Shown here one piece after another: positions 3,608-27,157 of a DNA stretch of 32,901 bases. Made by a program: the position numbers and the translations under genes. The notes under the pieces were generated by a model. The model ran no database searches, was not told the DNA's origin, and saw nothing but the letters and a program-made list of their open reading frames with translations. The stretch comes from a virus: positions 362,573 to 395,473 of IMG/VR virus record IMGVR_UViG_3300032132_000001. One strand, written 5' to 3'. How positions within the stretch are numbered: position 1 is the stretch's first letter; every line of letters begins with the position of its first letter.

Positions 3608-6600
3608 TTATCCCGTCACTTCCACTAGTTCCATCTCAACCTCGTCGCAAACTCCGCAATCCACGTGGAAGGCGAACGGGTCCTGTGGGAACTCGTCCCC
3701 ACAAACGAAGTTGGTCTGAAATTCGTCGATTCGTTGTTCACACCCTTCCGCCAGTATTATGTAGCCGTCATCGGTGTGTTCGATGATCTGCCTACACGTT
3801 GTAACAATGCCTCTTCTAAACACTCGTCTCCCTTCAACCCTGCCGCTGGGTGGTTCTCCCCAAACTCTAGGGTCTAGTGTGGTGACGGTTATGTCGATTC
3901 TCGATCCTGATGTTTCGAACATTCCTATGTAGATGATTCCGTAATCGTCTACAAGCTTGAACTGTCCCTGTTCTGGATACTTTTCTTCGAATTCTAGATC
4001 AATAGCTGTCTCATCGAAGCATAGCATGTTAGGTATTGTTCCGTCAACTTTCGTTGAACATGTGCCGAACTTCTCCGTCAACACCATGAACAGGTCTGTA
4101 GTGACCCGATCGCAATTGAAGTCCAGGCTGCTATCTGGGAGCCTGAACAGCTCGACGGAACACCTGTCGATGGTTGCTTCTTCTTCGCTTGGGTTCGTCG
4201 GGTCGCAGCCAAATGTCTCGCAGCCGCAATCAAGACGGTAGGGGGCGTAAAGATGTGCCCGTGGGTCGTCTTTCGCCACCAGGATGCCAGAGCCGCACTT
4301 GAAGAGAAGATCGACACCTTCGGTGCCTTCACCACCGCCTTGAGGCACACCAAGCAGCAAAGTGACATCCACATCTTCGCTCGTGCCCCGGGGATAATCA
4401 AAATCTGCAAGATCCGCCTCATAGCGCCCGGTTTCGGCCGGGTAGCCGTTGGCGAAATCGACGCCAGCGGGCTCGCTCCCGCTTTCGTCTATCGCGTCTG
4501 GCGGGCAGGCGCAGTTTTCGTTGGCCGATTCGAAGATGGGCGGCACACCACTGCCAAGACAGATAGCGTCCACATCAGTAAACACGGTCTGTTCGAACAC
4601 CACTGGATCCGTGCTGACAGCACGAGGCTCTGCAGTGGAGTAGATCGCATGGGTTACCAAGAAATCTCTGTGTGCGTGCACGCTTAGGCTGGAGATGTCT
4701 GGCACCAAGCCGTTCCCGCAATACTCAAGTGGGATGTCTTCGAAAGTGAGGAACTCGTCCCCGTCCGTCCCTTCCACGATCAAGGGGTTCAGATCCTCAA
4801 TCGTGGGCTTATCTGTTCCTATAGCTTCGGGGCATTTGTGGAAAATGTCATCCCACGGCCTATAAGAGTAGATCGATACAAAATCGTTCTCCAGCTTGTT
4901 CATGGAGACGAATCTGTGCCCTGGGAAGAAAAGGTTGTCCTTTTGAATATCGAGGGAAGGACGCCTGATCGCAAAGAACTCGTTGCTATCAACGAGGTCG
5001 TTCCTGAATTGATCTCTGTCAGTGTAGTGAAGGGTGGCTCCCTGGTAGCTCTTCACTCTTGCGAAGAGAGTATGAAGGAACGACACCCCAATGCTAGAGC
5101 GATCGCAACGATCATCTGCGAAGGTGCCGACCTGCTCTGGCACGATGGGGGTGGTATAGTACGCACCATGCCCCATGCCAAGATTGCAAGGCTTACATCT
5201 CAACAGTTCGGTTGCAATCAGGCAGCGATCGATCTCTACCGGAGTTTGAACACGACCTTTATAGCAATAATCGTCAGAGTTCCCTTGTGTAGAGCAGAGC
5301 TTAGACCTATCATCTGCGATATGGTCGAAGTCTTTCTCCCCATTGCTTATAACTCGGTCTTGGCCAGCCGGGGTGAACTCGCAGGGAGAGGCGTCCGGTC
5401 TCGGAATCGCCACATTGGAGAGAGCTTCTAGTTCCGCTCGCTGTTCTTCGGGTACCACATGGGTACCATCTAGATCTTTCCAAGTCTGGTGTTCGTTCTC
5501 CAGCCCAGCGATGATCTTGGCACGGAGGTCTAGTGTCTCCTGGCTGAACCCTCTATCATCGTCGCATTCTGTTGGGTCTAGTGGGATGATAGCGGGAGGC
5601 GTCTGTAGTTCCCCAGCATCGGTACCCGGAGCCTGCTTATTCAGACCACCCAAGCAGAAGTCTTGGACGTTGTAGACTTCGCAGCAATCTATTAGTATAA
5701 TGATCTTGCGTAGGAGAGAGTGGAACGCCTTCAATCTCAGTACGAAATCCAACAGGAATTCGTACAACTGGCTAGTTGGCTCTTCTCCCTGGACCGACAG
5801 GATCTGGATGTCGAAACGGTTAGATTGCAGGTTTTGTAGTTCAGGGGGAACGACGAGCTTGTCGTAGAGATAGGTGGCGAATATGAAGAGCTTCTGTCGC
5901 GATCGGTCGAAGTCGATGTAGTGGTCGAACGTGACCGTTATTACGTTGTTATCACTGCCGTACCTGAGACCGACTTTGTTTAGTGGCGCATCGTTTACTT
6001 GTCTGTCGTCGGTGCCTTGGCCCGATTCAAGATCGATTAAGACCTTGGAGAACCCGAGGATTGGCGGGCTGATGGAAGCGAGCGCGGGGGATAAGAGATA
6101 TCCGTCGAGGTCGAGAGCACAAACGCCCTCAACAGATTCTGGCATATCATCAACGCTGTCTGATATTGCCTGTAGCTCAGCTTCGGCCGCCGAACCGATG
6201 TCAACCAGATAGGCGTCAACAGTTACATCCGAAGTTGGCCTGAAGAGAAGCGGAACAACAATTTGTCCGAAGCCATCTTCTGAGAAATCGGAGACTAGCG
6301 GCTCTGTGCGGCACGTCTCTTCTTCGGTGATTTGGTCTTCGTTGGGCGCTTGGAACCCTGAGCCGTCTTCGTTATACCAGAGGTTCCTGATAGCAACCAT
6401 GAACCCGAAGATTTCGAACAGCTCGACCAATACCCTGCGCGAGCCCTTGAGCTGCTGCAACCGACGAGCATTTTTCAGTACGTTACGCCGGATTTCATCT
6501 GTGGACCCTGGGAAGTATGGCAACTCCCAGCCAACAAGATATGCAAGATAGGGAATAAGCTGCTGCGGGATGCGGTTGACGAAGTTGACACCTTCTAGGA

Positions 6601-7360
6601 GGTTCTGTTCGTCGTGGATGTCCTGCAGGAGATCGGCAAAGGGTCGTAGAAACTTGACATATGGGTCATCGTCAAGTGCAACCTGTCCGTCGAAGTAGAT
6701 GGACGGAGTGTTAGAAAAAAGAGCCTGGTGGACCTCACCAGGGTGAGCATGAATCAGATCGTATCTAGCTAGAGCTTCACGAGTCGCGTCGATGCATAGG
6801 AGTTCTTGATCTGCGGTGACCAGACGTGGGTTGTACGATGCTTGCCATACGAACTTGTAACGTCCAAACGGCTTCAGATCGGCTGTGTCGATAGCGAATA
6901 TTGATAGGTCATAATAGTCGGCGTCTGGATGGTATACAATCCGATCTCTAGCTCCAGGCCCGTCTAGCATCCCTCGTTCAAGAGTGTACTCGAAGAAGTC
7001 CCCGTCTACCGCGTCGAAGAAATCCTTCTCCTCTCCGGTTTCCTGGTCGAAGAATATCTGCCCTTCAAGTGGGATAGCTGTCCTGCTCAGTTCTAGATCA
7101 GAAACGGTGACGACAAAGCGCTCAAGGTCCGGTACGAAGATGCCCTTATTCTGGAAACCAGCAACTGGCACCAACCCTGGCGCATCTTCAATGAAGTATC
7201 GGAGATCGAACACACCGGAGTTTGCTACCGGAGCGTCGTTTATCCTAACCCATGGAACTACTAGGACGATAGGGAGATTAACTGGTTGCAAGCCTGTCCT
7301 ATTATTTTGAATAGGCCATCTTACAAATTCTGGTTGGAATCGATCGGTTATTTCAGCCAT
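3608..7360 (-). CDS. large virion structural protein (1250 aa) with P2 gpI-like baseplate/tail domain; Cys-rich C-terminal region
   Basis: Segment LIPYLAYLVGWELPYFPGSTDEIRRNVLKNARRLQQLKGSRRVLVELFEIFGF matches the conserved core of phage tail protein I (P2 gpI, baseplate wedge) family; size comparable to T4 gp7-class wedge proteins. Confidence 0.55.
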   Translation of the reverse strand: MAEITDRFQPEFVRWPIQNNRTGLQPVNLPIVLVVPWVRINDAPVANSGVFDLRYFIEDAPGLVPVAGFQNKGIFVPDLERFVVTVSDLELSRTAIPLEGQIFFDQETGEEKDFFDAVDGDFFEYTLERGMLDGPGARDRIVYHPDADYYDLSIFAIDTADLKPFGRYKFVWQASYNPRLVTADQELLCIDATREALARYDLIHAHPGEVHQALFSNTPSIYFDGQVALDDDPYVKFLRPFADLLQDIHDEQNLLEGVNFVNRIPQQLIPYLAYLVGWELPYFPGSTDEIRRNVLKNARRLQQLKGSRRVLVELFEIFGFMVAIRNLWYNEDGSGFQAPNEDQITEEETCRTEPLVSDFSEDGFGQIVVPLLFRPTSDVTVDAYLVDIGSAAEAELQAISDSVDDMPESVEGVCALDLDGYLLSPALASISPPILGFSKVLIDLESGQGTDDRQVNDAPLNKVGLRYGSDNNVITVTFDHYIDFDRSRQKLFIFATYLYDKLVVPPELQNLQSNRFDIQILSVQGEEPTSQLYEFLLDFVLRLKAFHSLLRKIIILIDCCEVYNVQDFCLGGLNKQAPGTDAGELQTPPAIIPLDPTECDDDRGFSQETLDLRAKIIAGLENEHQTWKDLDGTHVVPEEQRAELEALSNVAIPRPDASPCEFTPAGQDRVISNGEKDFDHIADDRSKLCSTQGNSDDYCYKGRVQTPVEIDRCLIATELLRCKPCNLGMGHGAYYTTPIVPEQVGTFADDRCDRSSIGVSFLHTLFARVKSYQGATLHYTDRDQFRNDLVDSNEFFAIRRPSLDIQKDNLFFPGHRFVSMNKLENDFVSIYSYRPWDDIFHKCPEAIGTDKPTIEDLNPLIVEGTDGDEFLTFEDIPLEYCGNGLVPDISSLSVHAHRDFLVTHAIYSTAEPRAVSTDPVVFEQTVFTDVDAICLGSGVPPIFESANENCACPPDAIDESGSEPAGVDFANGYPAETGRYEADLADFDYPRGTSEDVDVTLLLGVPQGGGEGTEGVDLLFKCGSGILVAKDDPRAHLYAPYRLDCGCETFGCDPTNPSEEEATIDRCSVELFRLPDSSLDFNCDRVTTDLFMVLTEKFGTCSTKVDGTIPNMLCFDETAIDLEFEEKYPEQGQFKLVDDYGIIYIGMFETSGSRIDITVTTLDPRVWGEPPSGRVEGRRVFRRGIVTTCRQIIEHTDDGYIILAEGCEQRIDEFQTNFVCGDEFPQDPFAFHVDCGVCDEVEMELVEVTG

Positions 7361-7369
7361 AGCATCTTT

Positions 7370-7972
7370 ATGTATCTGAGTCGCATGAAGCCATCACAAC
7401 GTGCACGTGAGATTTTACGAGCGGAAGCACAAGCTATCCTTAATGTACCTTTGTCGGATGAGTTCGACAAAGTGGTTAACTTGATAGCTCGCATGGGCCA
7501 TAGAAAAGTACTTCTCACAGGCATGGGTAAAGCCGGGAATATCGCAAGGAAGGTCACTGGAACTCTCTGTTCCACCGGAACCCCAGCCTGCTTCCTTCAC
7601 CCTGGAGAAGCGGCTCACGGCGATCTCGGGCTTGTCTCTCCAGGCGACCTGCTGCTGGCCTTCTCGACCAGCGGGAAAACTCGCGAAGTACTGGAGACGA
7701 TCCAGCTCGCCCGCCGTCTGGGTGCTTCAACGGTGGTCGCCGTCACTTCACATCCAGACGCGCCTATCCGAAACCTAGCCGACTATGTTCTAGAGCTAGG
7801 AGAGATAGAGGAGCCGTGCTATCTTGGTCTAACGCCCACGGCAAGTACGACAGCTATGCTTGCGCTCGGAGACGCCCTCGCCCTTTGCATAATGGGCAAG
7901 AATAATATCAGCAAAGAGGACTATGGGCTTCGTCACCATGGTGGTTACCTAGGCGAAATAGCCAGAGAGTGA
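7370..7972 (+). CDS. kdsD: SIS-domain sugar-phosphate isomerase, KdsD/KpsF (arabinose-5-phosphate isomerase)-like, lacking CBS domains
   Basis: [37 protein letters not shown]...[11 protein letters not shown] is near-identical in pattern to E. coli KdsD SIS domain ([37 protein letters not shown]...ISNSGES). Start chosen at first ATG (7370; alt 7385) rather than TTG7286, which would overlap divergent gene. Confidence 0.75.
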   Translation: [200 protein letters not shown]

Positions 7973-10051: not shown

Positions 10052-10408
10052 ATGGGTACAGGATGGTATACCGGACGGTTTCAACCGCTACACGCAGGTC
10101 ACATCAAGTGCATCAGGTATATCCTAGAAAAGGAAGACCGATGCATCGTGATTCTACGGGACACTGATCAGAGCGAGCGAAACCCTTTCGGAGTGGACGA
10201 ACGCAGAACCATGCTAGAGAAGGAGTTCTACCAAGAACTCCAGGATGGTAGAGTGATCGTCATCGACTCTCCAGACCCAGACTGCGACCTGACGGTCTAC
10301 ATCGGACGCCAGGTAGGATACGACCTCATCCAGCTGGATGCGGCTACTGAGGCCATCTCAGCTACAAATATCAGAAAGAAGCTATACGGAGAAGAAGATG
10401 GCAGTTGA
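10052..10408 (+). CDS. nucleotidyltransferase of the (H/T)xGH superfamily, archaeal/NadM-type NMN adenylyltransferase-like (short, 118 aa)
   Basis: GRFQPLHAGH (HxGH motif) , RNPFGVDER, and ISATNIRKKL (ISxTxIR motif) match M. jannaschii NMNAT pattern GRFQPFHKGH/ENPFTAGER/SGTEIRRRM; SD GGAGGTG upstream. Confidence 0.7.
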   Translation: MGTGWYTGRFQPLHAGHIKCIRYILEKEDRCIVILRDTDQSERNPFGVDERRTMLEKEFYQELQDGRVIVIDSPDPDCDLTVYIGRQVGYDLIQLDAATEAISATNIRKKLYGEEDGS

Positions 10409-10958: not shown

Positions 10959-11831
10959 CTATGACCTTAGGGCTGGAGCAACGTATTCCCGACCTAGAAA
11001 TTGGAATACCTCCTCTTCTTCCCGAAATCGGTGAGCTTCGCCTTCCCGGAAGAGACCGTATTCGTTTAGACACCAACCGTCCTGTTTGATAGACGCACGC
11101 AGTGTCTTGTTGAAGTCTTTGCTCCCGGTCATGTGGAGTAAGGCCGTCCCCCACTGCGAGCGATCGATTATGTTTAATTCTACGCACGCGCCGTCCGTTA
11201 CAATAGCACACTTGCGCTTCCCTTTTTCAACAATCGGCCCAAGGCTGCAGAAAGTGTCGATCGCTTCGGGGCTCTCAATGAGGATGTCTATATCCCCAAC
11301 TGTTTTGGATTCCCGGCGCAAGGAGCCGGCGCACTTCATTTCGAAAGGTAATTGATCGGCTACTTTGGTAAATATACTGTATGCATCATCCCAGCAGATT
11401 CGCTCGGTTGAAATCTGCAGTCTTGCGGATAGAGTGGGGTTATTTATCTTTCCGACTTGGATTAGCTGTAGTAGACCTGTTCTTGTTGTTACTCGGTGCT
11501 TACGGTATAGCTTCTTTGCTGTCTTTATACCTATACCCTTAACACTCATGAGATCCCGCAGATCGCCATGCCTCTTAATCTGCTGGTTTAGTTCTCTCAG
11601 CTCGCCAGTCTCTAGGATCTCTATAATCTTAGCTGAGATCTTCTTCCCAACACCCGGGATATCGGCAAGCGCGACGTCGTCGAGCGGCCGTCGAAGATCC
11701 TCAATGTTCTCTGCAGCCTTCCTATAGGTGCACTGCAGGTATTTGAGGTTTTTGAACTTACTCATTGACAGAGTAAGATACTCCGTATGGGTACGGAGGA
11801 TAGACACCACAAGCGCGTTACTCGGATCCAC
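10959..11831 (-). CDS. DNA polymerase family X (Pol beta-like) minimal polymerase, ~270-290 aa
   Basis: 8-kDa/HhH region YRKAAENIEDL...DIPGVGKKISAKIIEILETGEL; second HhH VKGIGIKTAKKL; catalytic GSLRRESKTVGDIDILI (two Asp), LLHMTGSKDFNKTLRASIKQDGWCLNEYGLF and C-terminal YVAPALRS all match Pol beta/Pol X motifs. Track start is GTG11831; ATG11765 (MSKFKN...) plausible. Confidence 0.8.
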   Translation of the reverse strand: MDPSNALVVSILRTHTEYLTLSMSKFKNLKYLQCTYRKAAENIEDLRRPLDDVALADIPGVGKKISAKIIEILETGELRELNQQIKRHGDLRDLMSVKGIGIKTAKKLYRKHRVTTRTGLLQLIQVGKINNPTLSARLQISTERICWDDAYSIFTKVADQLPFEMKCAGSLRRESKTVGDIDILIESPEAIDTFCSLGPIVEKGKRKCAIVTDGACVELNIIDRSQWGTALLHMTGSKDFNKTLRASIKQDGWCLNEYGLFREGEAHRFREEEEVFQFLGREYVAPALRS

Positions 11832-12268: not shown

Positions 12269-12713
12269 GTTCTTCCAGTACAAGTAGCTCATCGTCCCCG
12301 TCGTCCAACCGAGACTGGATAGTCTCGGAGATCCCCCGTCTAATATGGCGAAAATGGCTCTTAATTTGAGTGGAGAATATTTCCATTTCCACTGGCTGTT
12401 CCAGCAGGTAGTGTAGAGATATTCTATTGCGGGGAAGGAAGGAAACCTGGAAGTGCATCATATCCAGCAGGTTTCTGATCAACTTGGCGATGAAGCACTT
12501 TAGCTCTTCGTCGTACACCTTTGTGCGACAATTACGAAGAACTTCGGGTGCTGCAGTAGCTGTGACGAATCGTCCGTTTAGGATGTCGTCCGAGAAGTTC
12601 TCAAGTTCCCACTCCATCAACTTGGAGTGGTCCTGAGCGATATAATCTACGAAAAAGAAAGGATAGGGCTCAATCCTGATTGATCGGACGCTCCACAGTT
12701 CCTTTCTCTTCAT
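12252..12713 (-). CDS. hypothetical protein (153 aa)
   Basis: ORF only. Confidence 0.45.
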   Translation of the reverse strand: MKRKELWSVRSIRIEPYPFFFVDYIAQDHSKLMEWELENFSDDILNGRFVTATAAPEVLRNCRTKVYDEELKCFIAKLIRNLLDMMHFQVSFLPRNRISLHYLLEQPVEMEIFSTQIKSHFRHIRRGISETIQSRLDDGDDELLVLEEPIRVE

Positions 12714-12723
12714 ACATTATATT

Positions 12724-12993
12724 TTATTCTTCCTCGCAGCGCTCGATCCAAGTAGAGCACTTGTAATGGTATGACCATCCTCCCATCCCACCATGCATCC
12801 GTTCAAATTCCACGGTGACCACGATAGAGTCCGTGGAGCGGACGAAATCCACGGTGTCGGAGTGGCCATACTCGTCAATACGGAAGAGGGCCAGAGCTGT
12901 CTGTCTCGCTCTTTCGTACGCCTGCTCGGTTACGCGGGTCGGATCCGAAATGGAGATGGGGAACGTTTCGACGTCGGTGACTTTCTTGCTCAT
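12724..12993 (-). CDS. hypothetical protein (89 aa)
   Basis: ORF; ATGA-type coupling with upstream gene. Confidence 0.4.
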   Translation of the reverse strand: MSKKVTDVETFPISISDPTRVTEQAYERARQTALALFRIDEYGHSDTVDFVRSTDSIVVTVEFERMHGGMGGWSYHYKCSTWIERCEEE

Positions 12994-13448
12994 ACGAGAT
13001 TACACCTTATGCACGCTTCCATGAGCATCTTATCTGCCTCAGTATACTTCCGCAAGCGCATATTCGTTCCGCGATAGTACGCACGGCCACTGCGCTCTTT
13101 CGGAGCTTTGTGATCTACGATCCGGTTGTAGGTCAGATCACCGTCCCAGATCATATAGGCAGACTTTCGAGAAATGTTCCTTCCGTTACCGGAAAGGACC
13201 GCCCCTCTGGTGAAATAGACCTGGAAAAGGAAGAATGGATCATAATCTGGTTTACATATATCATCCTGAGTTGCGGGATAATAGATAAGTCTACCTTTCA
13301 CACCTCTTTCCTGTATCGCTAGACCCATCCAGTGGAGTTCATGGAAAGAGATGGGCCACGACCATGTCTTGTCAGACCGGTGGTGGCCCCACTTTTTAGT
13401 TGGTACAGGTTCCATGGGTACAAAGTCGCTTGGTCTTTTTCTTGTCAT
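12990..13448 (-). CDS. hypothetical protein (152 aa), basic N-terminus, CxxC at C-terminus
   Basis: ORF only. Confidence 0.45.
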   Translation of the reverse strand: MTRKRPSDFVPMEPVPTKKWGHHRSDKTWSWPISFHELHWMGLAIQERGVKGRLIYYPATQDDICKPDYDPFFLFQVYFTRGAVLSGNGRNISRKSAYMIWDGDLTYNRIVDHKAPKERSGRAYYRGTNMRLRKYTEADKMLMEACIRCNLV

Positions 13449-13460
13449 TACATGGCAGGA

Positions 13461-13877
13461 TCACCATGTCCGTCCGATAGTGAGATGATACTTGGTCTTT
13501 GGTGTCTCATCGAGACCAAGCTCTATTCTTATCTCAGCAAGTCGGTCAGAGAAACAGTCAACGAAATAGTAGCTATCAGGTCGGTCCCAGCCGGTCGTAT
13601 CCCCGGCCTGGCGGATCAAATACTTGTATTCGAAGGTTATGATCTCGCCGTCGTGCTTCTTCCACGCTTCAAGATTAGGCGGTTCGATCCCGCGCACAAC
13701 CGAGAGGTGGGCGCCCCACGAGGGTTTGTGGAGCTTTACTTCTTGGTGGATCAAGATTTGGTGGCGGAAATAACGGCAGAGATCCTCACAGGTCTCCAGC
13801 ACAAGCCACCATGGATTATTGGATTTTAGGCCCGGTCGTTCCGGGTTATAGACGAGTTTTCCGCTGCACCGTAACAT
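13461..13877 (-). CDS. 2H phosphoesterase superfamily protein (LigT/CPDase/Acb1-like), 138 aa
   Basis: Two H-x-[ST]-x motifs flanked by hydrophobics: AHLSVVRG (~aa 57) and YHLTIGR (~aa 131), ~74 aa apart, the hallmark of 2H phosphoesterases. Confidence 0.6.
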   Translation of the reverse strand: MLRCSGKLVYNPERPGLKSNNPWWLVLETCEDLCRYFRHQILIHQEVKLHKPSWGAHLSVVRGIEPPNLEAWKKHDGEIITFEYKYLIRQAGDTTGWDRPDSYYFVDCFSDRLAEIRIELGLDETPKTKYHLTIGRTW

Positions 13878-13878
13878 G

Positions 13879-14163
13879 TCATAGTACTTTGTTTAGTAGA
13901 TCCCTGTAAATAGCGTCGTCTTCGATGTGACTGTACTTCAGATCTTTCCCAAGTTCATCCGATTCAGTCCGTCCAACTAGGACAAAAAAGTCGGACTCGA
14001 CGTAATAAATGACACACTCATCGTCCCCCGACTCTTCGGGAACCGGGGTGACGAACATGATAAACTCGATGATCACTCCAGGCTGAGCCCTCTCTTCTGG
14101 CATCAGCCACCTATCCTCCTCATCGATGTTCCCAAACCAGGCCATAGCCTGCAGTTTGGTCAT
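13879..14163 (-). CDS. hypothetical acidic protein (94 aa)
   Basis: ORF; start ATG overlaps stop of upstream small ORF (ATGA). Confidence 0.4.
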   Translation of the reverse strand: MTKLQAMAWFGNIDEEDRWLMPEERAQPGVIIEFIMFVTPVPEESGDDECVIYYVESDFFVLVGRTESDELGKDLKYSHIEDDAIYRDLLNKVL

Positions 14164-14333
14164 TTTATACCTTTAGAGAAGGAGAGGAGGAGCATCTTGG
14201 GAGCTAGGTCGGTAAGTACTGTGCAAGATCTCAGAGTCCACTTATCCTTGCCTAGATCTCTCAAGAGCGTCTCGTATGGTTCCAGCCCTCTCCACTCATG
14301 GAGTACTGCTTTATAATCGATTGCTCTAGACAT
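14160..14333 (-). CDS. small hypothetical protein (57 aa), not in ORF track (<60 aa)
   Basis: ATG 14333-14331 lies 1 nt after TAA of upstream gene; its TGA overlaps ATG of downstream gene (ATGA); fills otherwise 170-nt gap in a tightly packed operon. Translation MSRAIDYKAVLHEWRGLEPYETLLRDLGKDKWTLRSCTVLTDLAPKMLLLSFSKGIK. Confidence 0.4.
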   Translation of the reverse strand: MSRAIDYKAVLHEWRGLEPYETLLRDLGKDKWTLRSCTVLTDLAPKMLLLSFSKGIK

Positions 14334-14334
14334 C

Positions 14335-14757
14335 TTATCCCTTTAGGTATTCTAATGCTCGCCTGTAGTTTCCTTCTGTCATACAGACGACTGGGTCGAT
14401 TTCTACGAAATTGTCCATTTTGTAAAGAGGTAGGTCATCTAGAATAGTATACTTCACGTCTGGATGAAGCTCTAGCCATTCGCAGATATCGGCCTCCCTA
14501 CGTGCGTTGGGAGATAGTTCATATGAAGTCCATTCTTCATGTAGAAGAATCTCTAGATCTATCCCGTTTTTCTGGAACAGATCAATTACTACATCTTTCC
14601 CGCAACCGACCCATGTACTAGAGACGACAACCTTAGCTCCCGATTCCTCGATCAGGCAAAGAAGAGCCGACTTTGCTTCTGGGACGAAGATCTGGCTGCT
14701 TGGATCAGCAGCAGAAATGAGTACTCCGTCGATGTCGAGGAATATTACTTTGTCCAT
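14335..14757 (-). CDS. HAD-superfamily phosphatase (140 aa)
   Basis: Motif I IFLDIDGVL (DxDGV), motif II VVVSSTW, motif IV ILDDL. Start at ATG14757 (TGATG overlap with upstream gene); track ORF starts further upstream. Confidence 0.7.
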   Translation of the reverse strand: MDKVIFLDIDGVLISAADPSSQIFVPEAKSALLCLIEESGAKVVVSSTWVGCGKDVVIDLFQKNGIDLEILLHEEWTSYELSPNARREADICEWLELHPDVKYTILDDLPLYKMDNFVEIDPVVCMTEGNYRRALEYLKG

Positions 14758-15065
14758 CAGATTCCAAAGGTCCAAACCATAGCAGTGGCCCAAGCAAGAG
14801 TGCCAGCCACTATGAAAATGGCGATGATCAATAGCCCGTAAGCGAACAACAACCCCAAGCAGGAGTGCAGGGTCATAGCGAGCGCGAACAACATGCCACG
14901 CCATCCATCGTTCTCAATGGACTTGAGCGACATTTGAAGTAAGCCGAATTCATCGTCTGGGCCTTCTCCCAAAAGCACAGTGCGCCAAGCATCTATCGCT
15001 TTTGGGAGAAGTATGATGTAGCTCACGGCAACCATGAAGACTGCCCAGTCAGCCCAGGTGGTCAC
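14757..15065 (-). CDS. small integral membrane protein (3 predicted TM)
   Basis: Hydrophobic segments AVFMVAVSYIILL, LFALAMTLHSCLGLLFAYGLLIIAIFIVAGTLAWATAMVW. Confidence 0.5.
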   Translation of the reverse strand: MTTWADWAVFMVAVSYIILLPKAIDAWRTVLLGEGPDDEFGLLQMSLKSIENDGWRGMLFALAMTLHSCLGLLFAYGLLIIAIFIVAGTLAWATAMVWTFGI

Positions 15066-15454
15066 TACAGGTTACCTTCCACGTGGTACCTGCACAATGA
15101 TCTAGGACCAGTAGTGGCTTTGTGGATGGTCTCTTCGCAAGAGAGGCACTCCACCTTATATCGTCTCCTCCCTGTATCGCAACCGATCAGAGAAGTGGGG
15201 GTCACCTTGAGTTGATGGCCCTCGATGAGGAACTCTACCATCTCAGGCGGGCCGGCATCGGAATAAATGCCAGTCACATCCGGCCATGGGAAATCGTATG
15301 TGGGTTCCGTCATCTCTTTGACTTTTCTGACCCAAGCTTCGCAGACCGGATGAAACGACTCATCTGGCATGGATACCTGGTCAAGAAGCCCGTCCACCAT
15401 CTTCGCACCCTCTTTCAGAAGTTGAAGAGCTTCATCTAACTCGCTTTGCGGCAT
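15065..15454 (-). CDS. hypothetical protein with C-terminal Cys/His cluster (possible zinc-binding)
   Basis: Start at M17 (TAATG overlap with clpS stop); C-terminal C..C..H..C..C..H. Confidence 0.45.
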   Translation of the reverse strand: MPQSELDEALQLLKEGAKMVDGLLDQVSMPDESFHPVCEAWVRKVKEMTEPTYDFPWPDVTGIYSDAGPPEMVEFLIEGHQLKVTPTSLIGCDTGRRRYKVECLSCEETIHKATTGPRSLCRYHVEGNL

Positions 15455-15786
15455 TATCCGTCTACCTTCTCGATTGATGCGCCCATCGAGCCCTTGCTCC
15501 ACGCGAGACGCCGGTCAGCGCCCCAGGCATGGATCTGGTCCCGCTTCAGTTCGCAGGTTTCTAGCTGTCCACTGTATACCACGGCTTTCCCGTCGTTGTC
15601 CAGAGTCTCCGCCATGCCGTATGCCTTGTCCTCGGTGTGGCCGAAGAGAACGCGCAGCATGTTGATTACGTAGTAGTATGAGTGGTCCTGGTCATCGTAT
15701 AGTACGATAATCCATGGTTTTTGTGTCAGAGTGTCAGTATCAGTGCCGACGTCTTCCACTGTATCAGTCATCGTTGCCATCGTCAT
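15454..15786 (-). CDS. clpS: ClpS-like ATP-dependent Clp protease adaptor
   Basis: KPWIIVLYDDQDHSYYYVINMLRVLFGHTEDKAYGMAETLDNDGKAVVYSGQLETCELK aligns position-by-position with E. coli ClpS core ([29 protein letters not shown]...[21 protein letters not shown]); SD GAGGTGA upstream. Confidence 0.75.
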   Translation of the reverse strand: MTMATMTDTVEDVGTDTDTLTQKPWIIVLYDDQDHSYYYVINMLRVLFGHTEDKAYGMAETLDNDGKAVVYSGQLETCELKRDQIHAWGADRRLAWSKGSMGASIEKVDG

Positions 15787-16531
15787 TAGTCACCTCTATA
15801 TAAGGGCTATCGTGTTGCGTGGAGAAGAAGTAGCAAGTTCCAATTAGGATCTTCATAAGGAAACGGTCGAATTGATCCAAAATCCCAAGCGCCCGGTGGT
15901 GCATTTCATTCACTTCCAGTGTGTCTAGCACATCGGTGATAAACCTACCCCACCAATCTGGAGTTCTTGTGATGTTTAGCACACCGGGCAATCCTGCTAC
16001 CCAACTATTGATTATTGCTTCTTTATCTTTATCGGTCCTGATCTTTTTCATGAACTGGACGCAGTAAGCAACCACGTTCGGTGGCGCATTTTGCGACGCT
16101 TTATCATATACATCTGGATCAAGATGAGTTGTCAGCTCGGCCTTCTCTAGATCGAGGAGTCCGAGATATCTTCTTACGTCTCGTTCAGTGATCTCATCTA
16201 CAAATCCGCCAGGACACAGAGTGAGAACAGTGTTCTCCTTGTCCTCGATTTCGAACTTGCTGAAGAGCCATTCTGTGGAGACGTCAAAGGGGCAGAGGAT
16301 CATTGGAATTTCCAAGATCCTCCTTGCCCCTGATAAGCCTATAGTCTGTACATAGTCGTCCCTAGTGAGCACTACCGAATGGTACTTCTGCTCATTATAC
16401 TCGTAGGACGTCTCGAAGACTGGGGTTACATCGGTGATCTGCTCTAGGAACAGTTCGTTCATGCGAGCAAATTCTTGTTGAAGCTCTTCGGTGGTCTTAG
16501 CTTCTACCGAGTTCTCTTGTTTGCCATCCAT
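15764..16531 (-). CDS. hypothetical protein (~255 aa) downstream of helicase
   Basis: ORF; start taken at first ATG after helicase stop region. Confidence 0.45.
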   Translation of the reverse strand: MDGKQENSVEAKTTEELQQEFARMNELFLEQITDVTPVFETSYEYNEQKYHSVVLTRDDYVQTIGLSGARRILEIPMILCPFDVSTEWLFSKFEIEDKENTVLTLCPGGFVDEITERDVRRYLGLLDLEKAELTTHLDPDVYDKASQNAPPNVVAYCVQFMKKIRTDKDKEAIINSWVAGLPGVLNITRTPDWWGRFITDVLDTLEVNEMHHRALGILDQFDRFLMKILIGTCYFFSTQHDSPYIEVTNDDGNDD

Positions 16532-17468
16532 CTCTTGATCTACTCGACACGTATCTCTTATTCGGGGTAACAACCTGACGCATCAGCACTTTCGCACGAG
16601 AAGCGTAAGGCAGGGCCTCCACGAGGTTACAGTTTAATTTACCCTTGTAAGTGCGCATCGCACGCCCAGCCATCTGGGTCAGCATGCTCTTGCTCCGGGT
16701 GTTCCGGGCCACGACCACGCTCTTCGTGCACGGGAGGTCGGTTCCTTCCGTCAGAATCAGGCACGAGAACAGCACGTCCACCTTCCCGTCTTCGAAATCC
16801 TGGAGCTGTCGCTCCCGGTTCGATTTGCCGGTGACAATGGTGGTTCTCATCTGAAGCTTCTCAGAGAATTCTGCTCCTGCAGCCTTGGTCGGCACGAACA
16901 CAATGGTCGGACCGAGCATGCTCTTGTGAGCATTCATCCAAGACGGTAGCACTTCAAGGATATCACCCTTACACCGGACAGAATATACCCATGGTGGTGC
17001 CAGGTATCCTTCTGCAACGAGCTGGTCGATGGAGATCCCAACGACCTGCGCATCAAAGTAGAGGGTTGCGTTGTCTTCGCGTTTGGGCGTAGCGGTCAGA
17101 CCCAAGAACCGGTCGAAGCGAAGCCTATCCTGTAGATCCCGGATGGTGCTGCAAGACTCGTGGTGAGCCTCATCTAGCACCACCAGGTCGAATTTGCCCC
17201 AGGTCGGGTCCGGTCGCTTGAAGACAGAATGGAATACTACGTCATTCCGGCCAAGTTTCTGGAATGACTCATTGGCCTGTTGGAGGAGTCGTCTACGGTG
17301 GGCTAGCCACAGTACCTTGCGGTAGGGCCTGCAAAGCCCTGCCGCAGCAGTGTAAGTCTTACCTCCACCGCACGGCAGGACCGCAAGCACCCGCGCAGCA
17401 CCAGATTGGAAGATTTCGTAGACGGCATCCGTCATATCTTCCTGGTACCAGCGGAGTGATGTGAACAT
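16497..17468 (-). CDS. superfamily-2 DEAH-box DNA/RNA helicase (323 aa)
   Basis: Motif I LPCGGGKT, motif II VVLDEAHHE, motif III LTATP, motif VI QMAGRAMR; N-terminal LRWYQ typical of type III-res/Rad25-like helicases. Confidence 0.8.
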   Translation of the reverse strand: MFTSLRWYQEDMTDAVYEIFQSGAARVLAVLPCGGGKTYTAAAGLCRPYRKVLWLAHRRRLLQQANESFQKLGRNDVVFHSVFKRPDPTWGKFDLVVLDEAHHESCSTIRDLQDRLRFDRFLGLTATPKREDNATLYFDAQVVGISIDQLVAEGYLAPPWVYSVRCKGDILEVLPSWMNAHKSMLGPTIVFVPTKAAGAEFSEKLQMRTTIVTGKSNRERQLQDFEDGKVDVLFSCLILTEGTDLPCTKSVVVARNTRSKSMLTQMAGRAMRTYKGKLNCNLVEALPYASRAKVLMRQVVTPNKRYVSSRSRDGWQTRELGRS

Positions 17469-17966
17469 TTAGTCCTCTTCAGCTAGATCCTCATACACCT
17501 CATCGAGGATTTCGGCGAACTGGTATAGTTCGTGATGGATCGCTTTGCGCGGACTCACGTCGCTCCAGCGCTCCAACGCCCAGAAGAAGGGGCGCAGCAG
17601 GATCGGCGTGCGGCAGATCCAGTCTGCGTACTTCCGCAGTGCGTTGGCGGTCAGGCTCACGTCGAGGATCTCCTCAGCGGTGTCCTCACCATAGAACTGG
17701 ACCAATCCGTCGATCAGATTGATTACCGAGATCTCGGCAAGCTGCTGCTTGCCTACGATACCATCCGTCATGAGCTTGACAGCCGCAGGCGCGACCACAT
17801 TACTCATCAATTCTGCAAGGGCCAGGTTCTCATCCTGGTCCAGAAAAGGTGCCGGCTTGCTGCTCTGGTGATGCTTGAACAGCGTGGTTGCGCTGTGTTG
17901 GAACAGCGTGGTGGCAACCGGACGTCGAATCAGGGCGTCTGCCAAGTTCTTTGGTGTGATTCTCAT
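17469..17966 (-). CDS. hypothetical protein (165 aa); weak resemblance to all-alpha MazG-like NTP pyrophosphatase
   Basis: ATGA overlap with purA/purZ-like stop and TAA-ATG abutment with helicase: operonic. Segment AEEILDVSLTANALRKY loosely resembles MazG E-x-x-D helix (EELGDVLFxL). Weak. Confidence 0.4.
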   Translation of the reverse strand: MRITPKNLADALIRRPVATTLFQHSATTLFKHHQSSKPAPFLDQDENLALAELMSNVVAPAAVKLMTDGIVGKQQLAEISVINLIDGLVQFYGEDTAEEILDVSLTANALRKYADWICRTPILLRPFFWALERWSDVSPRKAIHHELYQFAEILDEVYEDLAEED

Positions 17967-19108
17967 GTAAGTTCCATTACGTGGTGCATACTGTCGGGAC
18001 CAGTCCCGACCACAGTCACCGGGATTCCGGCGTCATCTTCCACCTTCTTGATGAAATCAGTCACCTTGGTCGATAACCTGCCGGGATCGTTGGTGCCATA
18101 GCAATCCCAATCGAGGTAGTTTGCGAAGTTGAGCGCGATCTTAGTCGCTCCCGTCACCATCACGGCGTATTGGAGCTGCGTGGCGGAGTAGGAGAACACG
18201 CGTCGCAGACGTTTGGTCACCGTGGTGAGTTCGCCCTTCGCGACGAGCGGCGGCGCTCCTGCTTCCCGCGTCACCTGTTCCCAGGTGATCTCATTCTGGT
18301 GAGGGTAGCAATCACCGGAGTATCCGACCGTCTTCCCGTCTTCCATTACGTTACCCACGCGGATGGGGAAGGGACGGATTACCATGTAGATGTCGCCAGC
18401 CCACTGGTGCGGTACACCCATGTCGGCCATCATCTGCATCGGAGTGCACTCTCGCGAGGTGCACTGTGGGTAGTGTGACCCGTGGTTGACTCCGAGGCTG
18501 AATCCCTGGCTCCCTTCATGCAACCAGGTGTACTCATTTTTCATCATGAGTATAACCTGTTCACTGAAGAGTGGGTAGACATCACCCTGAGCATCTTGAT
18601 TGGTCACTACACCCCAATCCAACATGTCACGGGCAAGCTTTACTTCAGCACCACGCATCAGCTTCTCAGCCTGTACCGCACCAGATCCCTGCATCGTACT
18701 AGCGATGTGCTTGGTATCGGTGCGCTCCATCTTCGCGTGATCTTCGGTGACGATCATCGCTCTCGGATGGATGTGTACTTTCTTACTTGTGGGGAGTTCG
18801 TCCGAGATGTAGTCACACTCTCGGAGTTCCTGCATTAGGCGTTCCACGGTGAACCCGGCACCAGCGCCGATGTAACACCTCATATCGTAGCCTAGCTTGT
18901 TGAGAATACAGCTGGCAGGAATCACCTTAGAAATGAACTTATATTCTTTGCCATTGACGTTACAGATGGCGGTGTGCCCTGCATTTGGTAGATTGGTCGT
19001 AGAAGCACACTTTACTCCATACTTCCATGCCAAGAATGTGGCGATGTTCCCTTTGCCAGTGCTACCCCACTGACCGTCAATTACTAGATTGAATTTACCT
19101 GCTTGCAT
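17963..19108 (-). CDS. purA: adenylosuccinate synthetase family protein (PurA homologue) with variant P-loop GSTGKGN; PurZ-like (2-aminoadenine pathway) candidate
   Basis: [21 protein letters not shown] vs E. coli [46 protein letters not shown] vs [31 protein letters not shown] vs ATTGRRRRTGW; ISTGPD-like VVGTGPD. Start at ATG19108 with perfect SD AAGGAG 6 nt upstream (track start 19150). Confidence 0.8.
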   Translation of the reverse strand: [381 protein letters not shown]

Positions 19109-19287
19109 GAACGGCTCCTTGTGTAGGTCCGTTTCAAATACTGCTGTCATAGTGGACCGGGCAGGATTTGCACCTTGCGTCTCTGTCTCCAGCGCTTTCC
19201 TTCTCGATAACCATAGGTGGGTTATAAGTTCCCCATCGTTCCAGGGGCTCCCACCCTTAGGGTCGCTAAGCTACCGGCCCAAATATA

Positions 19288-19326
19288 GTGATGGCCCGAT
19301 GGGAGTAATCCGCACCGGGCCATCAC
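19288..19326 (-). terminator. stem-loop downstream of cspA-like gene (11-bp perfect stem GTGATGGCCCG/CGGGCCATCAC)
   Basis: Inverted repeat 12 nt after cspA stop, followed on minus strand by TATATTT; candidate intrinsic terminator. Confidence 0.4.
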
Positions 19327-19337
19327 TTGGAAGACTG

Positions 19338-19538
19338 TTAGATCTTGCGAACGTTCTCTGCGGCTGGACCCTTCGGTCCTTCAACCACGTCGAACTCGAC
19401 TTGATCTTCTTCGTTCAGGGACTTGAAGCCTTCCATTTGGATGGCTTTGTGGTGGACGAACAGGTCCTTACCACCGTCATCGGGCTTGATGAAACCATAG
19501 CCCTTCTCATCGTTAAACCACTTCACTGTTCCACGCAC
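19338..19538 (-). CDS. cspA: cold-shock protein, CspA family (cold-shock domain)
   Basis: [15 protein letters not shown]...[11 protein letters not shown]...[27 protein letters not shown] is canonical CSD with RNP1/RNP2 motifs; GTG start with SD AGGAG 8 nt upstream. Confidence 0.9.
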
Positions 19539-19558
19539 TTCTGTCTACTCCTAAAGCA

Positions 19559-19614
19559 CCGGCTGCCGGGATGGCAGCCGGTATTGTACGAACAACGACT
19601 AGTTGTCGTTGTTC
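19559..19614 (-). terminator. two tandem perfect hairpins (10-bp GAACAACGAC/GTCGTTGTTC and 9-bp CCGGCTGCC/GGCAGCCGG) between upstream gene stop and cspA SD
   Basis: First hairpin overlaps stop codon of gene 19599-20207; second ends 6 nt before cspA SD; terminator and/or 5'-UTR structure. Confidence 0.4.
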
Positions 19615-20207
19615 TCCTTGATGTAGGACGCGAGGTCCTTGTTTTTGTGGGTCAGCTCGTACCCCTTCTTCTCCAGCTGCTTCCGCTTGCGCGTCAGCGA
19701 CTTGAAGTCCTTGATGGGGTAGGACGTCCCCTCGGCGCCCTTCTTGCCGAGCGAGCCATTGTAGGTGTTGAAGGTCAGGAAGGACTGACCATCCGCCAGG
19801 ATGACGCACACGGCCTTGGCGATGAAGTCGGCGTGGTCGAAGTCGTTCTCCTTCTGCCACACTTCACCCTGCTTCTGCAGTTCCTTGAAGTTGACCTTTG
19901 CCGGCTCGACGTCCTTCTTGGGAGTCTTCTTCTTCTTCGGGGTTGCGGTCGCTTTTCCAGACATTTTCTCGTTCTTTCGTAGGGTTTCTTGGAATGCGGG
20001 ATTGGGAATTTCGTTGCCGTCCACGACGGAAGCGATGACACGGGAGATGTGCACTCGGTGCGCCTTACCAGATTCAGATCCGGTAAGCTCCACTACCGAT
20101 TTGCTTAGCGCCTCGATAGTGTAGTTCTCTTCGTCACGCTTGCCATCGCTATCGGAAACGACGATCTCACTCCCAACGTCAAGCTCAAACTTGATTTTAG
20201 TGGCCAT
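19599..20207 (-). CDS. hypothetical protein with central lysine-rich linker (PKKKKTPKK) (202 aa)
   Basis: ORF; possible nucleic-acid binding by composition only. Confidence 0.5.
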   Translation of the reverse strand: MATKIKFELDVGSEIVVSDSDGKRDEENYTIEALSKSVVELTGSESGKAHRVHISRVIASVVDGNEIPNPAFQETLRKNEKMSGKATATPKKKKTPKKDVEPAKVNFKELQKQGEVWQKENDFDHADFIAKAVCVILADGQSFLTFNTYNGSLGKKGAEGTSYPIKDFKSLTRKRKQLEKKGYELTHKNKDLASYIKENNDN

Positions 20208-25683: not shown

Positions 25684-26324
25684 TATCGTCTCCAGAGGTG
25701 CTTGTGCATCGCTCCCATGGCAATGGGAACCGACTCAGGTTCATAGATGGCACTAAGGAAAGTCTTCATCCCGGTAACCATCATATCCTGGCAATCCATC
25801 AGTTGAGCCACACTTTCAATCAGATGCTCTACAAGATGTGGGTTACTGAGAGGGATGACGACTGATTCGCCTAGGAGGTCTGGTTCTCTATTGTCTCCAC
25901 GGCAGTGCTCCATGATCTCCATCATCTGGAAGATGCCAGGGCCACTGAGGTACAAGACAGCAGATCTTTCTGTGACGCTATTCTCTGCAGGATCTGGGTC
26001 TTCGACGTTTAGGTGGATGTGGGCTTCTAGGACGAGAGTCTCATCCTTTCGGTGGACCGTCACTCCCTTCGCCCATGATGCAGTGGGCTCTCGGAATTCG
26101 ATATCATCTCGCCAGTTGGTAAGTTCTGTTTTGAGATGTTCAAGTTCCTTTTCAAGCTCAGGCGGTGGTCCGATAACACCAACGATGGTGATGTCGTCGG
26201 GATCCAAGGCCAATGACATGCAGGCATATTCATAGAAGTTCTTTAGTGCTTCCTCACTAGAGCTGGCTTCTACGTGTTCTACTGCATTTCGATGAGATCG
26301 ATAATTGATCTTATATTGGGGCAT
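25683..26324 (-). CDS. hypothetical protein (213 aa)
   Basis: ORF. Confidence 0.45.
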   Translation of the reverse strand: MPQYKINYRSHRNAVEHVEASSSEEALKNFYEYACMSLALDPDDITIVGVIGPPPELEKELEHLKTELTNWRDDIEFREPTASWAKGVTVHRKDETLVLEAHIHLNVEDPDPAENSVTERSAVLYLSGPGIFQMMEIMEHCRGDNREPDLLGESVVIPLSNPHLVEHLIESVAQLMDCQDMMVTGMKTFLSAIYEPESVPIAMGAMHKHLWRR

Positions 26325-27157
26325 TATACCATCTTGAGGAAATCGTCGGGGCTGATGAGCTTCACCCCGTATGACCGTGCCTTATTGGCTTTGCTAGAAG
26401 TGCTGGTAGGATCGAGGATGATGAGGTAGTGGAGGTCCTTGCTGACACTCGACTTCACCTCTCCACCGTGCTGCTCGATCACGTCCGAGAGCCTGACACC
26501 GTTGTGGTTGCGAAGCCCAGTCATTGCGAAAGATTTACCAGCAAGAGGACCTTGCTGGATGAAGTCCATCACGTTGACCACCTTGGCGATTTTGTCCACC
26601 ATCGCCTGGCGTCGGTCTAGCCCTGCGCGGATCGCTTTAGCCTTCGTCTTGATGCCCTGGATGGAGGCGATGTCAGAGGTGGAGGATGCCATCACTGCGT
26701 CGAGTGTGCCAAACTCCTTGGCCAGCTTCTTGCCGTTGGTGCGTCCCAGGCCGATGAGGTTGAGGCCGGTGAGGAACGTCGCCAGCTTCATCTTCTTGGT
26801 TGCTTGGACGTTGTTGTACAGCTTGTCGCCGTTCTTCTGCGAGTTGCACGCCTTGGCGAAGATGTCAGCTGTCGCGGTGTACAGCCCGGCAGGGGTAGTG
26901 ATGCCCTCGGTGATCAGGCCCCGGACGACCCGCTGGCCCAGGCCCCGGATCTCGTGCGCCCGTACCCAATTCATGATGAGCCCGAAGGTCGCACCGGAGC
27001 AGTCCAGGTTGGGGCAGATGAGGTGGCGGGACTTGGTGCCGTCCACGTTCACCTCAAATTCTAGCCTAGTCTTGCAGTTGGGGCATTTGCCACTGAACCC
27101 GATATTGGGCACCTTTTTCTTCCCGCAGGTGCAGACAGGTACGGTTGCAGTTGTCAT
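26324..27157 (-). CDS. NAD-dependent DNA ligase (LigA) C-terminal module only: Zn-finger + HhH + BRCT, no adenylation/OB domains
   Basis: CPNCKTRLEFEVNVDGTKSRHLICPNLDC (Cys4 Zn finger), IMNWVRAHEIRGLGQRVVRGLITEGITTPAGLYTATADIF and LATFLTGLNLIGLGRTNGKKLAKEFGTLDAV (HhH repeats), LAGKSFAMTGLRNHNGVRLSDVIEQHGGEVKSSVSKDLHYLII (BRCT) align with E. coli LigA residues ~400-671. Confidence 0.8.
   Translation of the reverse strand: MTTATVPVCTCGKKKVPNIGFSGKCPNCKTRLEFEVNVDGTKSRHLICPNLDCSGATFGLIMNWVRAHEIRGLGQRVVRGLITEGITTPAGLYTATADIFAKACNSQKNGDKLYNNVQATKKMKLATFLTGLNLIGLGRTNGKKLAKEFGTLDAVMASSTSDIASIQGIKTKAKAIRAGLDRRQAMVDKIAKVVNVMDFIQQGPLAGKSFAMTGLRNHNGVRLSDVIEQHGGEVKSSVSKDLHYLIILDPTSTSSKANKARSYGVKLISPDDFLKMV

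Follow-up and report, generated by a model that had tools for sequence, protein, structure and literature searches.

The window analysed here is a stretch of viral DNA of 32,901 nucleotides (nts), positions 362,573 to 395,473 of IMG/VR record IMGVR_UViG_3300032132_000001, and carries on its minus strand a gene (13461..13877) that encodes a standalone protein of 138 amino acids (aa). This protein is confirmed as a member of the 2H phosphoesterase superfamily: both of its H-x-S/T motifs are conserved and lie on the central β-strands of a predicted bilobed α+β 2H fold. Its relatives and gene neighbours suggest a role in the repair of RNA ends over that of a copy of the phage immune-evasion enzyme Acb1, and we consider it somewhat probable, judging from sequence, that the protein acts as an RNA 2′,3′-cyclic phosphodiesterase in the repair of tRNA or other RNA ends. 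The catalytic activity, substrate, regiochemistry, biological role and partnership with a HAD phosphatase encoded nearby are those that we infer. Enzymes of this 2H kind, their occurrence in jumbo phages and their predicted role in RNA repair are already present in the literature and in Pfam, and the main value of the present analysis is hence the annotation of the gene and the definition of an experiment.

The first catalytic motif, AHLSVV (H57-x-S59; residues 56-61; 13695..13712, minus strand), and the second, YHLTIG (H131-x-T133; residues 130-135; 13473..13490, minus strand), were read from the sequence, confirmed in position on the reverse complement of the window and fall on β-strands predicted at residues 57-62 and 129-136, respectively. 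H57 and H131 are 74 residues apart, the protein has no further HxS/T motif, and the chain ends at W138, 7 residues past H131. The motif pair by itself is weak evidence, because 11% of shuffles of the 138-aa protein contain at least two HxS/T motifs. Alignment of 70 homologues, with a mean column identity of 30%, revealed that H57 and H131 are the sole invariant columns, that T133 and G135 are each conserved in at least 90% of the sequences and that a family-specific set of aromatic positions is conserved as well (Y10, W24, Y36/Y37, W54 and W72). An Arg follows each motif at position +5 (H57...R62 and H131...R136), and the HxTLxR motif of LigT enzymes has an Arg at a comparable +5 position. The earlier note on this DNA had taken AHLSVV and YHLTIG, about 74 residues apart, as the marks of a 2H fold. 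This is borne out by the conservation of the two His residues and by a profile alignment to the 2H-SAK domain that spans both motifs, which together establish the two-motif observation as real, and by structure prediction, which returned a 2H fold with confidence. On the predicted structure, the 138-aa protein appears to be a divergent, minimal 2H enzyme, predicted to be metal-independent and to depend on its two His residues. The only low-confidence part of the model is the loop GDTTGWDRP (residues 92-100; 13578..13604, minus strand), with a predicted local distance difference test (pLDDT) below 50 at residues 96-98; this loop is invariant in the 7 closest homologues and missing from the relative P0008.

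The only Pfam match of the protein is to 2H-SAK (PF22547), the “Swiss Army Knife” (SAK) RNA-repair 2H domain (21.6 bits, E=2.7e-4), with residues 48-137 aligned to positions 29-119 of the 124 in the profile. Individually, 59 of the 70 relatives match the same model at E≤0.01 (best E=1e-8), and about half of the close homologues have a precomputed PF22547 match. The orthologue from Serratia phage BF, gp183 (33.7 bits), and the relative P0125 (29.8 bits) both score above the 2H-SAK gathering threshold of 27 bits. The LigT-type models PF02834 and PF13563 are each matched by a single relative out of 70 and have no match in the target. Searches of the PDB chain sequences, made with the protein and with the 70-sequence profile, returned nothing relevant and neither an Acb1 nor a LigT chain. 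Burroughs and Aravind 2016 is reportedly the defining paper for SAK. The 2H-SAK profile, like the target, stops just past the second HxT; moreover, a SAK-type HAD gene lies nearby in the window, and the same phage groups are involved, including Serratia phage BF. The target family differs in being standalone, where 2H-SAK forms one module of a larger, multidomain protein, in its own N-terminal β-strand segment (G6, Y10, P12 and W24), which lies outside the Pfam match, and in the GDTTGWDRP loop, which is specific to the subfamily of the target. The LigT/ThpR enzymes (E. coli LigT, 5LDI; P. horikoshii PH0099, 1VGJ; D. radiodurans cyclic phosphodiesterase (CPDase), 5H7F) share the fold of the target and its predicted chemistry on 2′,3′-cyclic phosphate RNA ends (RNA>p).

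According to the proposed mechanism, H57 and H131 would serve as general acid and base, and S59 and T133 would hold the phosphate. The enzyme would open the 2′,3′-cyclic phosphate on the 3′ ends of tRNAs or other RNAs cut by metal-independent RNases of the host, for example anticodon nucleases or toxin RNases. Removal of the 2′- or 3′-monophosphate so formed would fall, in this phage, probably to the HAD_SAK phosphatase whose gene lies upstream; other phages would use PNKP-type HAD enzymes or an NAD+-dependent route. A kinase and an ATP-dependent RNA ligase would then complete resealing. This end-healing scheme was given to jumbo-phage 2H enzymes and standalone SAK-HAD phosphatases by Iyer et al. 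2021 (PMC7824862) and 2022 (PMC9503650). It resembles the action of T4 Pnkp (PseT) and Rnl1, which heal the 2′,3′>p and 5′-OH ends produced by host anticodon nucleases and then ligate them, and PseT-like and Rnl2-like genes recur near the 2H family. In T4, however, the HAD-type phosphatase domain of Pnkp alone clears the cyclic phosphate, whereas here a 2H enzyme and a separate HAD enzyme would share this step. If the proposal is true, the 2H and HAD_SAK proteins would be a split, two-enzyme form of the 3′-end healing carried out by T4 Pnkp, and could represent a common way for large phages to undo the cleavage of tRNAs by host anticodon nucleases, the family comprising more than 1,200 clusters at 50% identity. 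It would also give PHROG 12204, to which the protein belongs, a testable function, with 121Q, PBECO4, RaK2 and Serratia phage BF as tractable carriers.

The putative partner in the window is a HAD_SAK_2 phosphatase gene (PF18143, PHROG 1818), which shares the strand of the 2H gene and lies 458 bp upstream of it. The open reading frame (ORF) listed for it, of 189 aa (14335-14904), matches PF18143 over residues 53-177 (E=1e-16, 62 bits vs a cutoff of 27.5) and overlaps the upstream ORF 14757-15065. Its true start is probably Met50, at position 14757, since the Pfam match begins at residue 53, the DIDGV of HAD motif I becomes N-terminal and the overlap with the upstream ORF is cut to 1 nt at the stop codon. 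The listed ORF would thus be too long, and the gene (14335..14757, minus strand) would encode 140 aa and begin MDKVIFLDIDGVL. Two small ORFs on the minus strand, of 94 aa (13879-14163) and 57 aa (14160-14333), fill the interval 13879..14333 between HAD and 2H; they have no match in Pfam, PHROG or NCBIfam and no homologues in the related loci. From HAD to 2H, the genes are packed with 1-nt spacers or 4-nt overlaps, and this tight spacing suggests that the stretch is probably one transcription unit. The 2H gene is itself overlapped by an antisense ORF of 165 aa (13332-13829, plus strand), a shadow ORF that does not merit annotation as a gene; owing to the conservation of the sense frame, such antisense ORFs accompany the 2H gene in 23 of 41 related loci.

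The genomic company of the family was surveyed over 45 viral loci, metagenome contig loci and cultured-phage regions with iterated hidden Markov models (HMMs) from probe proteins, leading to a census of the genes within 10 kb of the 2H gene in 46 non-redundant loci. The gene classes counted were RNA ligase, PNKP/HAD, RlaP, Ro60, CCA-adding enzyme, YqeY, PTH2, Nudix, Macro and NADAR. At least one RNA-repair, tRNA/ribosome-rescue or ADP-ribose-processing gene is present in 31 of the 46 loci, nearly always on the same strand. A core repair gene was found in 20 loci and an RNA ligase in 12; a HAD_SAK or PNKP-type gene in 11, with HAD_SAK itself accounting for 7, the window included; YqeY, PTH2 or a hibernation factor in 10; and Macro, Nudix or NADAR in 14. 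No Acb1 gene was found in any of the 46. An unbiased clustering of all neighbouring ORFs gave the PF09414 RNA ligase as the second most recurrent real cluster. The 2H domain is also fused to YqeY in three proteins of 335 aa, which come from different sources, are 78-80% identical and represent one clade, and a standalone YqeY gene lies 0.5-5 kb from the 2H gene in 7 loci. Domains of the YqeY/GatB type are generally regarded as tRNA-associated.

Gene order in individual loci illustrates this company. RlaP, 2H and RNA ligase follow one another in the locus L022, and RtcB, RlaP, 2H, YqeY and Ro60 in L003, a 401-kb metagenomic phage contig. Downstream of 2H, YqeY and Ro60, L003 also encodes (12379-19978) a reverse transcriptase (RVT_1) and a Gad2-family protein, and it has a ThiF (E1), Prok-E2_D and Prok-JAB triad, a ubiquitin-like conjugation set as in CBASS-associated and related conflict systems (CBASS, cyclic-oligonucleotide-based anti-phage signalling system). 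In L050, the 2H and HAD_SAK genes overlap, and a Ro60-like gene follows 3 kb downstream. The locus L034, a 482-kb viral contig, has the order aminoacyl-tRNA synthetase-like gene, RNA ligase, SIR2, 2H and a protein with P-loop kinase and HAD domains; the assignments of the class-I synthetase-like gene (487 aa, HIGH motif region) and of the SIR2-like gene (together 4652-7870) were made by reading of the N-termini alone and are thus putative. The 2H ORF of this contig is 247 aa long, its C-terminal extension having a weak match to a CxxC zinc-binding domain. Among cultured phages, Serratia phage BF has an RNA ligase (PHA02142 oligonucleotide-binding (OB) domain and PF09414) at −2.4 kb and a DUF2828 “RNA-binding protein” at −0.5 kb relative to 2H, beyond which lie a ribosome hibernation factor, a CCA-adding-type nucleotidyltransferase, Nudix, YqeY and Macro, the whole block being on one strand. 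Phage 121Q shares the downstream part of this block. The BF protein gp184 (L065 9404-9976; 190 aa), whose gene shares 8 nt with the end of 2H, has no Pfam match and no counterpart in the other loci.

The context evidence for RNA repair is moderate. A generous null was used, in which each 300-kb carrier genome has one randomly placed copy of the partner gene and phylogeny is not corrected for. Under this null, and with kinship ignored, the presence of the small PF09414 ligase near 2H in 8 of 41 loci has p=0.003 (0.027 with one syntenic clade collapsed), and the proximity of HAD_SAK and that of YqeY have p=0.03 each. The small ligase is rare overall, being present in only 33 of 50,697 phage records. 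Counted in successive 2.5-kb bins away from 2H, repair genes number 0.61, 0.63, 0.50 and 0.24 per 10 kb.

Several observations weigh against a role in RNA-end repair. The score of the target itself (21.6 bits) stays below the 2H-SAK gathering threshold. Even the commonest neighbours reach no more than about a quarter of the loci, and the fall-off in repair-gene density with distance has the expected direction but does not attain significance (p=0.09). In the complete genomes of Phosso and RsoM2USA, the small ligase and 2H genes are 24.6 kb and 113 kb apart, respectively. A Pfam scan of a subset of the window ORFs gave neither an RNA ligase nor a polynucleotide kinase. The closest syntenic relative (70% identity; ClpS...2H...PolX) has no HAD gene beside its 2H gene, and tblastn assigns the HAD type of the window to KVP40-like phages and Aeromonas phages instead of the 121Q/Rak2-like phages that carry 2H. 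In addition, the accessory region of L005 holds an Acb2/Tad1-like gene, such regions also carrying anti-defence genes, and a Foldseek search of the PDB ranks Acb1 first, weakly (E=0.05, template modelling (TM) score 0.43-0.45).

Two stronger forms of linkage were rejected. A conserved operon is not compatible with the loci, as no partner occurs in more than 9 of 41 and the apparent “cluster” of 23 loci is the antisense shadow ORF. An obligate split pair of HAD_SAK and 2H fails as well: HAD_SAK is near 2H in only 7 of 46 loci, the window among them, the 179-aa gene that overlaps 2H in the closest relative is not a HAD, and the cultured phage groups differ. No fused 2H-HAD protein was found among the family matches.

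The earlier note had left two roles side by side for the protein, an Acb1-like enzyme or an RNA 2′,3′-cyclic phosphodiesterase of RNA repair. Comparison of the model with Acb1 and LigT-type enzymes supported the 2H fold; the choice between the two roles is not given by the scores. These were 6.4 for Acb1 of Erwinia phage FBB1, 5.9 for mouse hepatitis virus (MHV) ns2, 5.7 for both the penguinpox cyclic GMP-AMP (cGAMP) phosphodiesterase and CNPase, 5.6 for the D. radiodurans CPDase and 5.5 for PH0099 LigT, Usb1 and Acb1 BCSR5. A Foldseek search of BFVD returned two unnamed true relatives, followed by a mixture of Acb1, 2′-5′ RNA ligase and SAK 2H domain names (E ~0.01-0.03). On the predicted structure, Acb1 is hence the nearest solved structure nominally only, and fold comparison does not separate an Acb1-like from an RNA-repair role.

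Acb1 (T4 gp57B; Erwinia phage FBB1 Acb1, PDB 7T26/7T27) has no detectable sequence relationship to the target. The Pfam Acb1 model PF23474, which recovers T4 gp57B at 2.7e-60, does not match the target even at E≤10 and matches none of the 70 relatives. In hhalign, the family profile was aligned to T4 Acb1 with 1.2% probability, with one HxT motif paired, out of register. The catalytic tetrad of Acb1 is H44, T46, H113 and T115 (HxT/HxT), its pocket aromatics are Y12, W74, F107 and W147, its base-specific residue is E141 and its C-terminal lid is formed by residues 145-152 (Hobbs et al. 2022). The first His comes later in the target (H57) than in Acb1 (H44), and E141 and the lid of Acb1 stand ~30-40 residues past its second His; the chain of the target stops shortly after H131 and therefore lacks equivalents of E141, W147 and the lid. 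The genomic company is also different, with Acb1 absent from all of the census loci. Membership of the Acb1 family was rejected on account of the missing PF23474 matches, the hhalign probability and the lack of a C-terminal lid. Thus, the Acb1 half of the earlier proposal does not stand as far as family is concerned, and the RNA-repair half is supported by the 2H-SAK match, the proximity of the HAD_SAK_2 gene, the YqeY fusion and the neighbours.

Acb1-like activity outside the Acb1 family was kept as a rival because the family has a conserved aromatic set of its own. According to this explanation, a lid-less, Acb1-independent 2H family would evade immunity by degrading the cGAMP or cyclic triadenylate (cA3) of CBASS, the cyclic oligoadenylate (cOA) of type III CRISPR or similar signals. 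The nominal, weak first rank of Acb1 among the structural matches also speaks for it. We nevertheless regard it as unlikely, as neither Acb1 sequence affinity nor the lid, W147 or E141 is present, the structural scores are no better than those of CNPase, LigT, Usb1 and MHV ns2, and the neighbours are mainly RNA-repair genes. A broader version, which we hold to be slightly more doubtful still, is that, independently of Acb1, the family forms a second line of minimal phage 2H nucleases that have no lid and destroy immune nucleotide signals of the host. Their targets would be CBASS, type III CRISPR or RNA-derived 2′,3′-cyclic alarm molecules, they would be widespread in jumbo phages, and the RNA-repair neighbours would reflect a shared “counter-defence island” instead of a shared pathway. 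If the degradation of immune signals were true, the protein would define a new anti-defence family. A different substrate is proposed by a third explanation, which would still belong to RNA repair but would not act on RNA ends: a phosphodiesterase for ADP-ribose 1′′,2′′-cyclic phosphate (Appr>p), the by-product of NAD+-dependent 2′-phosphate removal by KptA/Tpt1 or a sirtuin, whose product would feed Macro, NADAR and Nudix enzymes. Consistent with this, NADAR lies 36 bp downstream of 2H in L057 and L058 and at +340 bp in L010, Macro, Nudix or NADAR recur within 10 kb in the 14 census loci mentioned above, Nudix and Macro lie downstream of 2H in BF and 121Q, and the SIR2 gene of L034 is 2 kb upstream of 2H. 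In addition, 2H enzymes act on ADPr>p, and a sirtuin-2H-Nudix-cREC-PIN neighbourhood was named in Serratia phage BF (Iyer et al. 2022, PMC9503650). However, KptA, sirtuin, Macro, Nudix and NADAR were not found among the subset of window ORFs scanned, the partner in the window is a HAD phosphatase and the YqeY fusion points to a macromolecular (tRNA) substrate, so that we consider Appr>p hydrolysis improbable for this protein.

Least probable of all appear the remaining kinds of 2H chemistry, namely Usb1-like trimming of 3′ ends, degradation of 2′,5′-oligoadenylate (2-5A) or of 2′,3′-cyclic nucleotide monophosphates, 2′-5′ ligation, or the binding of RNA ends without catalysis. The analysis gave no specific indication of any of these options. 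The strict conservation of both His residues and of Thr133 argues for catalysis and hence against a non-catalytic role, and 2-5A signalling is, to our knowledge, not known in bacteria, which counts against the oligoadenylate option.

The family is large and almost entirely unannotated. PHROG 12204 (“unknown function”) matches the protein from end to end (E=2.6e-36), and none of the NCBIfam models covers the family. Among 5.8 billion proteins, a profile search gave 829 matches, and an exhaustive HMMER search of 1.84 billion representatives gave 1,249 clusters (50% identity), of which 589 reach E≤1e-10. Nearly all members are standalone proteins of 130-170 aa. By tblastn, 76 cultured-phage records carry the gene, with 31-45% identity to the target; among the matches listed, all carriers are jumbo phages above 319 kb (the 121Q/PBECO4/RaK2/GAP32/BF group, Atu_ph07, Phosso, RsoM2USA, Bacillus phage G and a Vibrio phage), and their annotations are almost all “hypothetical protein”. 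Metagenomic members occur on contigs of up to 400-480 kb. No near-identical cultured phage relative of the window region was found by megablast. A degenerate DNA pattern for GDTTGWDRP, searched in 185,579 representative bacterial and archaeal genomes, gave 3 chance matches to the motif only; as far as this limited test goes, the GDTTGWDRP subfamily seems to be phage-restricted.

The 2H block of the window is flanked by a family X DNA polymerase gene (Pol beta thumb/palm/HHH_8; 10959-11831, minus strand), a cytidylyltransferase-like gene (10052-10408, plus strand) and a ClpS adaptor homologue (15454-15786, minus strand). The order ClpS...2H...PolX...cytidylyltransferase is kept in the closest metagenomic relative, L055. 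Further along the window, an adenylosuccinate-synthetase-like gene (395 aa; 17963-19150, minus strand) has as its best phage matches the PurZ-type genes of 2-aminoadenine (Z-genome) phages, including those of PhiVC8-like Vibrio phages (40% identity), the “2-aminooxy adenylosuccinate synthetase” of Acinetobacter phages and those of many Arthrobacter phages. The source phage, apparently a large one, may be a producer of Z-DNA; the ORFs flanking the PurZ-like gene yielded no DatZ or MazZ partner. A protein of 277 aa (26324-27157, minus strand) contains HHH and BRCT domains only and resembles the C-terminal half of an NAD+-dependent DNA ligase, no adenylation domain being detected in it by domain scan. 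Finally, a protein of 355 aa (31428-32495, minus strand) combines a periplasmic solute-binding domain (SBP_bac_3/Lig_chan-Glu_bd) with a K+-channel pore (Ion_trans_2), which is the architecture of a GluR0-like ligand-gated ion channel and is unusual for a phage.
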